Positions 7,295-21,353 of a stretch of 21,494 nt of DNA are shown in pieces. Position numbers and translations under genes: made by a program. Under the pieces are notes generated by a model. That model saw only the letters and a list, made by a program, of their open reading frames with translations. It did no database searches and was not told the DNA's origin. Positions within the stretch are counted from its first letter, which is position 1, and the number at the start of each line of letters is the position of its first letter. Source of the stretch: a virus; IMG/VR virus record IMGVR_UViG_3300020215_000050, positions 1-21,494 of that record, one strand, 5' to 3'.

Positions 7295-7683
7295 TTCCTC
7301 ACTCCGAATATGACGGTCCAGCCGACGGCGGGTATGCGGCTCGGACTGTCGCGCGCGATGCGTACGTAGGCCCGACGGTCCCGATGCTCATACACGATGT
7401 GTCGCGGGGTGTTCTCCATCAGGTACCACGTCCCGTCGCCCTCGAGGTAGCGCTCCAGGGACCTCGCCCCCAGCTCAGTCATCAGCACGATGCTCGTCGA
7501 TACGCGGCGCTCCAGGGTGCCCGACACGACGTGGACGGCGAGGTTGAGGCAGTCGCGAACCCATTCCCTCATCTTGGTCGGCGAGTCGAGGGGCATGAAT
7601 GGGGGGCCGGAGTATCTCTCCGGCCTCCAGTTTCGTTCGTTCCGCCTGTCCAAGACGTCCCGGCTGGTGTTCCTCAGCCTCAT
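7291..7683 (-). CDS. hypothetical protein, paralogue of 6899..7294
   Basis: 130 aa from the ATG at 7683 (ATGA overlap with the DUF932 stop). Confidence 0.78.
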   Translation of the reverse strand: MRLRNTSRDVLDRRNERNWRPERYSGPPFMPLDSPTKMREWVRDCLNLAVHVVSGTLERRVSTSIVLMTELGARSLERYLEGDGTWYLMENTPRHIVYEHRDRRAYVRIARDSPSRIPAVGWTVIFGVRK

Positions 7684-8624
7684 GACGCGTCGGCGTACTC
7701 CTTCGCCTTCGTCAGGGCCTCGAGCTTGCGGCCGCGGTTCGTGCCGTACCAGCTGGAGACCAGCCGGCTGTCGTCGTTCTGACCGAGCTCGTGGTCGGCC
7801 ATGTACGTGACGGCGTTGAACGCCTGCCACCAGCTGCCCTTGGCGAAGTTCGCTCCGGGCTGCTTCTCGACGGTCTCGATCGCCGCCTGGGCGTGCCGGC
7901 TCATCTCCTTCTTTCCGCCGCGGTTGCTCGTCAGCGGGAAGACCTCGTTGAAGTAGCTCACCAGGGTGTCCTGGGTGTACTTCTTCGAGCCGAGGAACTT
8001 CGCGATCTCGCGGTAGTCGGCGAACTTGACGTGGGCGATGCCCAGCAGCTTCTTCGCCTCCTCGGGGTCGAACTTCTTCCGGTGGTTGAGGGTGATCATC
8101 TTGTCCGCGTGCTTCGACAGGGACAGGGTGAGCGTGTTCCAGCACACGACCCGGATCGGCGTCATGCGGACGTCGAGGGCGTGGCCGAACCGGTGCGGGT
8201 TCGTAAAGAGCAGGTAGTTCTCGACCTGGTCGCCGCGGAAGAGCTCGAACGTCTCCTTCACCTTGGCGAGGCACCACACGATCTGTCCGCCCTTGAGCGA
8301 GCCGGCCGTGTGCATCTCCATGTCGCCGGCCATCACGAACTCGTGGAAGAAGTCGAACGCCTCCTGGTTCTGCACCGGGTTCCAGGCGTCCGTCACGACG
8401 TCGAGCTGCTTGCCGTCGCTCGAGCGGACGAGGGCGGCGTGGCCGGTCTCCTCCTCCTGCATCGTCACCGGGTTGGAGATGGTCGCGGGGACCTTGACCA
8501 CCTTCCAGTCCAGCTGGGCGGCCTTGAGCATCTGCCGGGGCGTCAGGTCCGCGGGGACCTTCTTGCCCAGGCCGTGCCAGGGCACCTGGCCGGCGTACGC
8601 CATCGTCTCAACTTTGTGGGCCAT
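7680..8624 (-). CDS. DUF932/DUF945 family phage protein
   Basis: MAH.VETMAY..VPWHGLG, PVQN.EAF.FF, AGSL.GG, TPIRVVC.NTL and GSWWQAFNAVT motifs; AAGGAGG RBS. Confidence 0.92.
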   Translation of the reverse strand: MAHKVETMAYAGQVPWHGLGKKVPADLTPRQMLKAAQLDWKVVKVPATISNPVTMQEEETGHAALVRSSDGKQLDVVTDAWNPVQNQEAFDFFHEFVMAGDMEMHTAGSLKGGQIVWCLAKVKETFELFRGDQVENYLLFTNPHRFGHALDVRMTPIRVVCWNTLTLSLSKHADKMITLNHRKKFDPEEAKKLLGIAHVKFADYREIAKFLGSKKYTQDTLVSYFNEVFPLTSNRGGKKEMSRHAQAAIETVEKQPGANFAKGSWWQAFNAVTYMADHELGQNDDSRLVSSWYGTNRGRKLEALTKAKEYADAS

Positions 8625-15800: not shown

Positions 15801-16379
15801 TTAGGGGTTGAGCGACTTCGGCATCAGCCTGCGCGGGTCCTCGATCGTCAGCGCGTACGGGGTGTCCTCGATGCCCTCGTACTCCGGGCTGCCGCCGGCG
15901 GTGCCCGTCTGCTCGCCGTTCCCGCCCTCGCCCTCCTTGTCGCCGAAGATCTCCACGTACATCCCCTCCTCGATCGCCTTCTGGGCCTTCCTGAACCCGC
16001 TGGCGTCTTCCTGGGTGTACGGGAGCTTGTGGGCGCGGGGCTGGTTCTCCCCCGAGTAGCGGAGGGCCACGCGGGGATCGAGAAGCTCCATCCCGGTCAG
16101 CATCCACTTGTGGTTCCTGACGATCCAGATATAGATGGCGCCCTCCTGCTTGTCGTCGGGCTCCTCTATGATGACGGAGAGGAGCCTGGCCCGCTCCTTC
16201 TCCACGCCGCCGACGGGCCACCCCTTGTAGCTCTCCATCGAGAAGAAGATGGAACTCGCGAGGAAGAAGGAGGCCGCGACGACGACGGTCTTGAGCGCGT
16301 ACTTGGCCGGCACGAAGTACAGGGTGCTGCACAGGAGCACCGCGTAGGCCACGCAGTAGATGATCAGAAGCTTGTTCAT
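15801..16379 (-). CDS. membrane protein (two N-terminal TM helices), third gene of the ExbB/ExbD-like module
   Basis: 192 aa from the ATG at 16379 (ATGA overlap); GWP, IYIW and PRAHKLPY motifs. Confidence 0.8.
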   Translation of the reverse strand: MNKLLIIYCVAYAVLLCSTLYFVPAKYALKTVVVAASFFLASSIFFSMESYKGWPVGGVEKERARLLSVIIEEPDDKQEGAIYIWIVRNHKWMLTGMELLDPRVALRYSGENQPRAHKLPYTQEDASGFRKAQKAIEEGMYVEIFGDKEGEGGNGEQTGTAGGSPEYEGIEDTPYALTIEDPRRLMPKSLNP

Positions 16380-17029
16380 GGGATGCCTGCCCCGTCGCGG
16401 AGCACCTTGACCAGGCTCTTCTGGTGGTACTCGATGTTGCCGATGATGCCGTTGGCGTCGATGTTGAACGAGAAGGCGGTCTGCTCCTCCCACACCTTGT
16501 TGAGGACGACCTGCTTGTCCTGGTAGAGGCGGATGTGCGGGTTGAGCTTCTGCAGCTGCACCTTAACCGGGATGGGCTGCTTGGCCTGGCCCGTCTGGAC
16601 GTAGGCGCCGTCGAAGATGCAGGTGTAGAGGTGGACGTTGACCGTGTACCGGCCCGGGAGGAGTCCCCGCAGGATCGTGTACTCCTTGTTCTCGTCCACA
16701 GTATAGACCTGGTTGCCCACGGCCACCGTGTCGCTCCTCTTGCCCAGGTCGTCTCTCTCCAGGTGCATCAGCCCGACGTCCTTGTTGAGGAAGAAGGACT
16801 TAGCCCCGGTCGGGTCCTGGACCCACAGGTCGACGTCGCAGTCCGACTTGCTGTCCCACTCGGCCGTGATCATGACCTCGGCCTTGTGCTGGATGCCCTC
16901 GCTCTGCTTCTTGTTCGGGTTCGCGAGCAGGATCGTGAGGAAGAACAGGACGAAGATCGTCATGCTCGAGTTGAGCAGGAAGTCGATGAAGCTGGTCTTA
17001 GACGAGTACGAGCGCTTAGTCGAGAGCAT
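16376..17029 (-). CDS. single-pass membrane protein with ExbD/MotB-like Asp-containing TM and a periplasmic beta-rich (YfaP-like) domain
   Basis: TSFIDFLLN followed by a hydrophobic helix; W....D.D.DLWVQDP.G, LERDDLG and PGRYTVNVHLY motifs. Confidence 0.82.
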   Translation of the reverse strand: MLSTKRSYSSKTSFIDFLLNSSMTIFVLFFLTILLANPNKKQSEGIQHKAEVMITAEWDSKSDCDVDLWVQDPTGAKSFFLNKDVGLMHLERDDLGKRSDTVAVGNQVYTVDENKEYTILRGLLPGRYTVNVHLYTCIFDGAYVQTGQAKQPIPVKVQLQKLNPHIRLYQDKQVVLNKVWEEQTAFSFNIDANGIIGNIEYHQKSLVKVLRDGAGIP

Positions 17030-17531
17030 GGTGCTTCATATCCAGGGCGTAGTCAGCCGCGAAGGACTGGACCTGCATAACAACCCCGGCCATGACGCCG
17101 ATCAGCGTCACGTAGAGCGCCGTGCCGTAGTTCTTGCCGATGCCCGCGAGCATGCTCGGGAGGGCCGCCGCGTCCGCGGTCAGGTTGACGTCGCCGAAGG
17201 CCACGAGCATCATGCCGATGAAGCCGATGAGCGACCCGATCAGCCCGACGGACAAACAGATCTGACCCCAGAAGAAGCCCACGTTGGTCTTCATCTTGAG
17301 GACCTCGTAGGCGTGGGTGGAGTCGCCGTCATAGGACTCGATGTCCCGGCAGACCCTGCCGATGTGCCACGAGACGAGCCAGAACAGGACGTAGGCGAGG
17401 AGGGTCAGCTTGGTGTGGTCCGCCTCCCAGATCATGTTGGCGATGCCGACCTTGTACGCCCAGAACGACCCCGTGGCGACGAGGGCGTTGGTCACGAGCC
17501 AGGTAATGAACGGCCTCTTGGAGAACTGCAT
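17016..17531 (-). CDS. MotA/TolQ/ExbB proton-channel family protein
   Basis: Four hydrophobic segments; GLIGSLIGFI and GIGKNYGTALYVTLIG match the family signature. Confidence 0.88.
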   Translation of the reverse strand: MQFSKRPFITWLVTNALVATGSFWAYKVGIANMIWEADHTKLTLLAYVLFWLVSWHIGRVCRDIESYDGDSTHAYEVLKMKTNVGFFWGQICLSVGLIGSLIGFIGMMLVAFGDVNLTADAAALPSMLAGIGKNYGTALYVTLIGVMAGVVMQVQSFAADYALDMKHHALD

Positions 17532-20398: not shown

Positions 20399-20662
20399 CT
20401 ATTTGTTGATCCTGACCGTCCAGGCAAAGAACGACCCGACGAACCACTTGCCGATGAACAGGAACAGCGGCAGATTGACCAGAAACGCGGCGGCCAGGGC
20501 GGGCCAGCACAGGACGAACCGAAAGATGGCCGGCCACGTGCCCCGATCGAACCGGGCGCTGCCGGTCAGCTCGAGCTGGGAGAAGCGGCAGGCGATCAGG
20601 AGCCCGATGAAGACGACGACGTCACCGGCGAGATAGAGAATGAGCCAGTCCTGCCACTCCAT
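20399..20662 (-). CDS. small membrane protein
   Basis: 87 aa from the ATG at 20662 (TGATG overlap); two hydrophobic stretches. Confidence 0.7.
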   Translation of the reverse strand: MEWQDWLILYLAGDVVVFIGLLIACRFSQLELTGSARFDRGTWPAIFRFVLCWPALAAAFLVNLPLFLFIGKWFVGSFFAWTVRINK

Positions 20663-21012
20663 CACAGACCCCTCGTCGACAGCCCTATCGGCTGCCCAGT
20701 GTTCATCTTGACCTGGACGCACCGGTCGTCCCACAGCTCGATCATCGCGTAGTCCTTGACGCAGGTGACCTCGAGCTCGGGCAGGCCGGCATGGTCCCTG
20801 AGCCAGCGGTGGATCTCCTCGGTGACCTCCGCGGCCTCCTTGGCGTCCCCGCTGACGCGGGCCGTAAAGATCTTGACCTTGTGTCCCTTCTCGAGCCAGG
20901 CCTTGACCCTGTCGACCATCGGCCAGACGGGCCGGCCGATGTGCGTGTGTCCCTTCCACCCGCCGTACTCGGCGAGCGTGCCGTCGAGGTCGACCCCGAT
21001 CCAGCCCGACAT
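20662..21012 (-). CDS. HAD-superfamily phosphatase (PNK phosphatase-like domain)
   Basis: DLDGTLA motif I, IFTAR motif II, K, WDD motif IV. Confidence 0.88.
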   Translation of the reverse strand: MSGWIGVDLDGTLAEYGGWKGHTHIGRPVWPMVDRVKAWLEKGHKVKIFTARVSGDAKEAAEVTEEIHRWLRDHAGLPELEVTCVKDYAMIELWDDRCVQVKMNTGQPIGLSTRGL

Positions 21013-21353
21013 CAGACCTTCTCAGGCCACTTGACCTGACCGCCACTGAATGTCTTGTTCTTAATGAGTTCCACCTGACCAGTGTCACCATTGAACATGA
21101 AAACATCCACGGTATCTTCGTCATGGACACGAGTGATAATGGCGGGCCAACACCACTTAATGGTGTCGATGGCACCGGTCAACTGGACAATTCTTCCCAC
21201 TGATGGCTTCTGCTTGGGGATGAACCTGTACGGGTCGTCCTTGAACTCCTTGGCCTTCTCGCCGACCGTCTCCGCGGCGTCCTGGATCTTCTCGGCTGCC
21301 TCGCCGGCGATGTCGCCGATGGCCTCGCCCAGCTTCTTGAATGCGTCTCGCAT
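21012..21353 (-). CDS. hypothetical protein (helical N-half plus PSVGRIV...PAIIT domain)
   Basis: 113 aa, GGAG RBS, TGATG-coupled. Confidence 0.75.
   Translation of the reverse strand: MRDAFKKLGEAIGDIAGEAAEKIQDAAETVGEKAKEFKDDPYRFIPKQKPSVGRIVQLTGAIDTIKWCWPAIITRVHDEDTVDVFMFNGDTGQVELIKNKTFSGGQVKWPEKV

Follow-up and report, generated by a model that had tools for sequence, protein, structure and literature searches.

Locus and gene content

We analysed a 21,494-nucleotide (nt) stretch of viral DNA, hereafter the window, which comprises positions 1-21,494 of IMG/VR record IMGVR_UViG_3300020215_000050 (123 kb, estimated 74% complete) and comes from an uncultured T4-like phage of high GC content (~61%). 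Three overlapping genes on its minus strand, here called A, B and C, lie at 15801-17531 among replication genes, between regA and gene 43, at exactly the coordinates given in an earlier note made from the sequence of this DNA. The features of this cassette are as follows (aa, amino acids):

Gene A: 17531-17016, minus strand, 171 aa
Gene B: 17029-16376, minus strand, 217 aa
Gene C: 16379-15801 (from ATG), minus strand, 192 aa
A/B overlap: 17016-17029, minus strand, 14 nt, end of A and start of B
B/C overlap: 16376-16379, minus strand, 4 nt (ATGA), B stop and C start
Codon of Asp16 of B (GAC): 16984-16982, minus strand, within the transmembrane helix, motif TSFIDFLL

Both overlaps, read from the sequence, are of the kind expected for translational coupling. 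The frame of C can be extended to 16493 through a GTG start; the longer version is unnecessary. Because each of the three has many relatives, at 20-47% identity, we regard A, B and C as genuine genes rather than chance open reading frames (ORFs). Searches with single sequences gave no match when the region (blastn) and A (tblastn) were compared with 50,697 phage records, or when IMG/VR was scanned with a single A or a single B protein; a word-based protein search with A as query returned A itself and nothing else, and PHROGs contains no family for A, B or C.

Gene A as a minimal MotA/TolQ/ExbB-type channel subunit

The A protein has three clear hydrophobic helices and a weaker N-terminal one. 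The MotA/TolQ/ExbB signature assigned to it in the earlier note is weak in the single sequence (PF01618, E 0.014) and becomes clear at the family level: among relatives gathered from syntenic loci and by profile search, 26 of 29 members match PF01618, with a best E of 2.4e-11. Searched against the PDB, a profile of the A family found MotA first (8gqy, E 3.8e-6), then TolQ (2.7e-5), followed by ZorA, ExbB and PomA, and all of its top 22 matches belong to the MotA/TolQ/ExbB superfamily. The same profile retrieved PF01618 proteins of canonical length at E 1e-14 to 1e-17. In the ESM Atlas, the nearest entries are viral clusters labelled 'MotA/TolQ/ExbB' (175-181 aa, one with 2537 members; structure TM 0.90), a lead that the family-level profile tests bear out. 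The window protein also gives weak matches to ZorA models in PADLOC (E 0.0065) and NCBIfam.

Conservation within the family falls where a channel subunit would need it. Over 92 A sequences, the pore-helix residues G96, G99, T142 and G145 are kept in 96%, 100%, 95% and 100%, respectively, and position 100 is Thr in 96% (Ser in the window protein). The motif G96-x-x-G99-(T/S)100, together with T142 and G145, marks the two C-terminal pore helices, as expected from the conserved small and hydroxyl residues of the superfamily (G-L-x-G-T and A-x-x-T-T-x-x-G type motifs); D38, where the second helix begins, is invariant in the same set. Between the second and third helix, at the site of the large cytoplasmic domain of MotA, ExbB and TolQ, A has ~26 residues (61-86). 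Because that domain is so reduced, A is best classified, from its profile matches, as a superfamily member of minimal size. The T4 transcription factor called 'MotA' is an unrelated protein with which the name alone is in common.

Gene B: a conserved aspartate in the membrane and a periplasmic beta-sandwich

The B protein opens with a basic N-terminus (K5, R6, K11). A transmembrane (TM) helix spanning residues 10-35 and containing Asp16 comes next, and a short linker joins it to a beta-sandwich at residues 52-200; its structure model (predicted local distance difference test, pLDDT, 91.5) likewise has one TM helix followed by the sandwich. The motif TSFIDFLL, pointed out earlier in the TM helix, is present, and its Asp is Asp16. 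Conservation of this residue had been set by the earlier note as a check on its reading: position 16 is Asp in 138 of 139 aligned members and Glu in the remaining one, and it is invariant in alignment A8. We take Asp16 to be equivalent in position to D25 of ExbD, D23 of TolR and D32 of MotB, the hallmark position of the ion-binding Asp in these proteins, and it is presumed to be the ion-binding residue of B. With an N-in single TM helix and the conserved Asp near its cytoplasmic end, B has the topology of ExbD/TolR/MotB/ZorB-type subunits.

The window B protein has no match in Pfam, including ExbD (PF02472) and MotB_plug (PF13677), and two of 74 B members match MotB_plug, at E about 0.005. The best PDB match of a profile of the N-terminal TM region is a weak one to ZorB (8vvi_A, E 0.088), with the Asp aligned. 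An exhaustive HMMER search of a library of 50%-identity representatives returned 1461 representative relatives of B, 797 of them below E 1e-10, and there are 247 matches in IMG/VR; wherever the source record of one of the representative relatives gives a name, it reads 'hypothetical'. Pattern scans used a 9-row alignment of B, since the diversity of the 74-row one was too great for them.

In place of an OmpA-like or ExbD domain, the earlier note had described a beta-rich, YfaP-like periplasmic domain. The model of this part is all-beta, and no ExbD or OmpA-like chain is among the matches listed in the fold searches. The best fold match is TerD (2qz7; Z 9.8, root-mean-square deviation 3.5 Å over 129 residues, 13% identity), followed by a second TerD structure (2kxt, Z 9.1) and then by the C-terminal domain of a Ca2+-binding protease (Z 5.9); Foldseek concurs with a TerD-like fold. 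Pfam and profile searches gave no match to TerD at the sequence level. The YfaP label is reasonable on profile grounds, as hhalign aligned the B family with Escherichia coli YfaP at 89% probability (E 2e-6, 75 columns), across the D-x-D-L-(W/H)-V...P-G-x-Y motifs, and the ESM Atlas gave a feature score of 0.83 to the YfaP cluster, which we treat as a lead. The short Pfam model DUF2135 (PF09906) is silent, with no match in the window B protein, in any of 74 relatives or in a six-frame search of the genome. Among the invariant residues of B are several Asp, Glu and other residues (D65, D67, D93, D94, G96, N114, E116, R121, G126 and P164), and the acidic and polar ones among them would fit a putative metal site of the TerD kind. 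The sandwich is probably a Ca2+-binding, TerD/YfaP-like domain.

Gene C and its lysozyme fusions

As stated in the earlier note, the third protein has two TM segments and a soluble domain. Two N-terminal hydrophobic helices form a hairpin, followed by a G-(W/Y)-P motif, a small alpha/beta domain, a low-confidence Gly/Glu-rich loop and a conserved C-terminal strand (model pLDDT 71.8). Relatives of C are 20-39% identical to it, with G53, R115 and G139 invariant. The soluble part has no informative match in Pfam, PHROG or fold searches, the last of which returned hairpin-only alignments or low-probability OB-like rows.

In a recurrent viral subgroup, the C protein runs on at its C-terminal end into a whole lysozyme domain of T4 type (PF00959; E 3e-49, 6e-50). 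The fusions, with L numbers denoting surveyed loci, are:

L055: 735-1622, viral contig, C-lysozyme fusion
L057: 2982-3869, viral contig, C-lysozyme fusion
L082: 2768-3661, viral contig, C-lysozyme fusion

When the C model was used in a shape search, an 86-member viral cluster in the Atlas also came up, made up of 297-aa proteins that all contain PF00959. Peptidoglycan is the substrate of lysozyme, and the C-terminal part of C must therefore lie on the periplasmic side; as the protein crosses the membrane twice, its N-terminus is then outside as well. The short, positively charged loop between the helices would then mark the cytoplasmic side, which fits this arrangement. The fusions point to the cell wall as the target of the cassette, and they make a role in the envelope or cell wall more likely than interference with host motors.

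Strict gene order in viruses

We examined synteny in a viral sample of 80 IMG/VR loci found with B, on contigs that span 4-527 kb in length. Immediately upstream of B, 76/76 loci with enough upstream DNA have an A-family ORF, and a C-family ORF lies downstream of B in 79/79 testable loci, three of which have a single unrelated gene between B and C. Co-occurrence in other genomes, the other check set by the earlier note, is therefore borne out, in the same order. Inserted genes between B and C were seen at L017:3657-4436 and L018:3720-4586; one of these has a CxxxCxxC radical-SAM-like motif.

The statement in the earlier note that similar trios occur in other T4-like phages also proved right. 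Another T4-like contig carries the trio at a different genomic position, by gp59/gp32, with A and C each 25% identical to those of the window. A marine 148-kb contig has it too, as do isolated Rhizobium phages of three size classes, among which P10VF and RHph_I1_18 are culturable carriers. In the temperate phage 16-3 the trio is loosened (p038, p040 and p042), with two small genes, p039 and p041, between its members. Here p038 (L007:2208-2624) is a very divergent A type, with G-F-V-G-T and S-T-x-x-G motifs, that the A profile missed. The range of the cassette thus reaches beyond lytic T4-like phages to 60-70 kb phages, temperate 16-3 and chromosomes. At most loci the trio stands among replication or metabolic genes, outside lysis cassettes.

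No consistently linked fourth gene was found across the surveyed loci, nor were Pal, TolB or TonB-dependent receptor genes. A trypsin-like serine protease of periplasmic type adjoins the trio in L003, phage 16-3, L013 and L081, and lies a few kb off in L006 and L094. It was rejected as a core part, as it adjoins only 4 of ~150 surveyed loci and is absent from the 123-kb record of the phage. The genes are:

L003: 4172-5203, trypsin-like protease
L007: 1181-2080, trypsin-like protease
L013: 3049-4059, trypsin-like protease
L081: 1172-2197, trypsin-like protease
L094: 9434-10099, trypsin-like protease

A chromosomal version in Alphaproteobacteria

A scan of species-representative genomes yielded 60 loci. 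On large alphaproteobacterial contigs or whole chromosomes, a long A (250-290 aa, with the usual insert) is followed by B and C; the carriers belong to Rhodospirillaceae, Geminicoccaceae and other groups, and the surrounding genes are ordinary, of housekeeping type. Examples with an A of canonical length are:

L093: 5001-7726, bacterial contig
L097-L142: bacterial contigs

The trio of L093 precedes a gene for a 271-aa protein whose signal resembles that of a lipoprotein (lipobox-like LLMLGC). In a B tree (FastTree), which was a quick and unrooted one from which we claim no direction of transfer, 28 of the 29 long-A rows fall into one group (local support 96), apart from the viral and short-A rows, and the B protein of the window is one of eight rows that make up a viral group (support 98).

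Genomic neighbourhood and expression

Along the minus strand, the order of genes is gp44 clamp loader, gp62 (Phage_clamp_A), regA, orf58, orf86, A, B, C, gp43, a RecA/UvsX-like gene and a DnaB-like helicase. The earlier note had the regA and gene 43 flanks right and left out a pair of small ORFs that separate regA from A. The neighbouring features are:

regA: 18354-17932, minus strand, Pfam Translat_reg (E 5e-39)
orf58: 17954-17778, minus strand, small ORF in the interval from regA to A
orf86: 17791-17531, minus strand, small ORF in the interval from regA to A
gp43 DNA polymerase: 15752-13263, minus strand, 43% identity to cyanomyovirus gp43
ORF of 258 aa: 20399-21175, minus strand, upstream of gp44
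DUF932 protein of 314 aa: 7680-8624, minus strand, downstream of the replication genes (E 1.5e-38)
Late-promoter-like boxes TATAAATA: 421, 1612, 2743, 4241, 4571 and 10235, all outside the 10.2-21 kb replication block

Both small ORFs are translationally coupled to their neighbours, and the orf86 stop overlaps the ATG of A in the sequence TGATG. Neither orf58 nor orf86 has a match in Pfam, PHROG, NCBIfam or PADLOC. We rejected both as members of the cassette, as no relatives of them adjoin the trio in other loci. The 258-aa ORF stands at the place expected for gp45 (the sliding clamp) and has no Pfam match at E 0.001.

The window has six near-matches to the T4 late-promoter box TATAAATA, where chance would give 0.76, and none lies between 10.2 and 21 kb. 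Given this absence, transcription of the cassette probably accompanies that of the early/middle replication genes. We found no convincing terminator within the cluster, and scans for sigma-70 promoters and terminators stayed at chance level.

Comparison with known systems

In its working, the trio would come closest to TolQ-TolR-TolA and ExbB-ExbD-TonB, which also combine a channel subunit, an Asp-bearing single-pass subunit and a membrane-anchored periplasmic third protein, in the same order (tolQ-tolR-tolA). TolQ and ExbB are both among the profile matches of A, whose last two helices carry G-x-x-G-T and T-T-x-x-G type motifs as theirs do; B shares with TolR and ExbD an N-in single TM helix, a conserved Asp and, as it would seem, an output directed to the periplasm. 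In contrast, A is 171 aa long, compared with about 230-245 for TolQ and ExbB, lacks their cytoplasmic domain and has an extra N-terminal helix as in MotA, and the periplasmic domain of B is a TerD/YfaP-like beta-sandwich instead of the alpha/beta domain of ExbD and TolR. TolA and TonB have a single TM helix, an extended linker and a domain for an outer-membrane partner, whereas C is a two-helix hairpin with a compact domain of no known fold, such that C would be likened to them in role and gene order, not in family.

The flagellar stators MotAB and PomAB provide the best PDB match of A (MotA), the four-helix layout of A and the placement of the Asp of B at the cytoplasmic end of its TM helix. 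They differ in that A has no torque-generating cytoplasmic domain and B neither a plug-linker nor an OmpA-like peptidoglycan-binding domain, and in that the cassette is carried by a phage and accompanied by no flagellar genes. TerD and E. coli YfaP resemble the sandwich of B in fold (Z 9.8 and 9.1 for TerD) and in profile (75 columns for YfaP). B nevertheless has no sequence-level match to the Pfam TerD or DUF2135 models. A further difference is that TerD is a free-standing cytoplasmic protein, whereas the domain of B lies in the periplasm and is joined to a TM helix of stator type.

Likeness to Zorya lies in the weak ZorA matches of A, in ZorB as the best match of the B TM profile and in the link with phage biology. 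However, the long tail of ZorA is missing from A and the peptidoglycan-binding domain of ZorB from B, and no ZorC, ZorD or ZorE genes are present; the trio is phage-carried among replication genes rather than in a defence island, and PADLOC finds nothing for B or C. ZorAB is described as an anti-phage 5:2 motor (PMC11890865; Nature 2025 paper cited in PMC12505986), and the ZorB structure matched by B, 8VVI, comes from the first of these papers.

A literature search found no paper on the A-B-C trio. The most comprehensive survey of MotAB relatives that we found (PMC12505986) describes non-flagellar homologues with DUF appendages, and neither this type of trio nor phage-borne homologues. Thus, A falls within the MotA/TolQ/ExbB superfamily, and B and C lie outside any described family.

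A proposed ion-driven machine of the inner membrane

We propose that A, B and C make up a self-contained, ion-driven inner-membrane machine of the MotAB/ExbBD/TolQR/ZorAB kind with periplasmic output, a reading to which we assign a probability of roughly two in three. The interpretation as a 5:2 motor offered in the earlier note is supported as regards the superfamily membership of A, the conserved Asp and the co-occurrence of the genes; its stoichiometry and motor activity are extrapolated from homology. By such homology, A subunits would form a ring around paired B helices, and protons (or Na+) would take a path along the polar helices of A, lined by Gly and Thr, and past Asp16 of B, driving movement of A relative to B. 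Because A has almost no cytoplasmic domain, the work would be delivered on the periplasmic side, where the sandwich of B might serve as an anchor or sensor. C would bind as a membrane-anchored periplasmic arm, moved or gated by the motor and acting on the wall or envelope in a TolA/TonB-like role, an arm that would end in a lysozyme in one viral subgroup. The cassette may in this way condition the envelope of the infected cell, dependent on membrane energisation; candidate roles are local wall remodelling, control of wall hydrolases, exclusion of later invaders and envelope stability. A complex prediction with A, B and C at 1:1:1 scored 0.07 and 0.01 with C as the partner (mark, 0.32) and gives no verdict either way.

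Several results weigh against this proposal. The A protein of the window scores below the Pfam cut-off for PF01618 (15.6 bits, E 0.014, compared with 22.9 bits), and it is without the cytoplasmic domain found in every characterised member of the family, and may thus work differently. B has no significant sequence match to the ExbD, TolR or MotB families; what links it to them is its topology, a single conserved Asp and the genes around it. By Pfam and by fold searches, which mostly tested the hairpin, C is similar to neither TolA nor TonB.

As a more specific and tentative version of the proposal, a miniature 5:2 motor would position, move or switch a peptidoglycan-directed arm through a TolA-like C, so that wall remodelling, control of lysis or exclusion would be coupled to the proton-motive force, and the chromosomal version would serve the envelope upkeep of the bacteria themselves. 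The near-absence of a cytoplasmic domain in A could also be read as the mark of an ion leak under gated control and not of a motor. A and B would then make up a proton channel whose opening by the phage depolarises the membrane, for example to time lysis as a pinholin does, or to abort or exclude a competing infection, with C and the sandwich of B as the gate. Unplugged MotAB-type complexes do leak protons, and the lysozyme-fused C recalls membrane-tethered endolysins, which are freed on depolarisation. Here and in most loci, however, the trio lies outside lysis cassettes, among replication or metabolic genes, and its stable retention on alphaproteobacterial chromosomes is hard to square with a purely lethal channel. 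We consider a leak of this kind unlikely.

Since many phages and colicins rely on the Ton or Tol system, a phage might gain from a small A or B that inserts into host Tol, Ton, flagellar or Zorya complexes and disables them, as a counter-defence or as a way to exclude Tol- or Ton-dependent phages and bacteriocins; the weak ZorA matches of A in PADLOC and NCBIfam and the ZorB match of the B TM profile could be taken in this sense. A decoy would, however, need neither a working Asp nor a conserved C, and the cassette has its own complete A and B pair with conserved pore residues and its own third partner, always as a trio. Homologues exist on bacterial chromosomes, and the similarity of A to ZorA does not exceed its similarity to MotA and TolQ, all of which makes a poisoning role very unlikely. 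Finally, the low scores of the window proteins to known families might mean that the genes are unrelated neighbours, or that the MotA/ExbD likeness is a convergent similarity of hydrophobic helices without an ion-driven mechanism. Such a coincidence is very unlikely in view of the strict co-occurrence and order across proteins 20-45% identical, of family-level profile matches that fall exclusively on MotA, TolQ, ExbB, ZorA and PomA, and of the conservation of the Asp and pore motifs at exactly the expected places.

Significance

Phages P10VF and RHph_I1_18 and the temperate phage 16-3 are culturable carriers that make the role of the cassette directly testable, and the lysozyme fusions offer a concrete handle on its target. 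Carriage by viruses is large in scale, with 1461 representative B proteins and 247 IMG/VR matches. Ion-driven 5:2 motors are few (flagellar stators, Ton, Tol, the gliding/T9SS motor and Zorya), and each new one has shown a new extracytoplasmic use of membrane energy. As an ion-driven machine of this kind, the A-B-C cassette would be the smallest such motor so far, with a new output domain in B and a new third partner in C.

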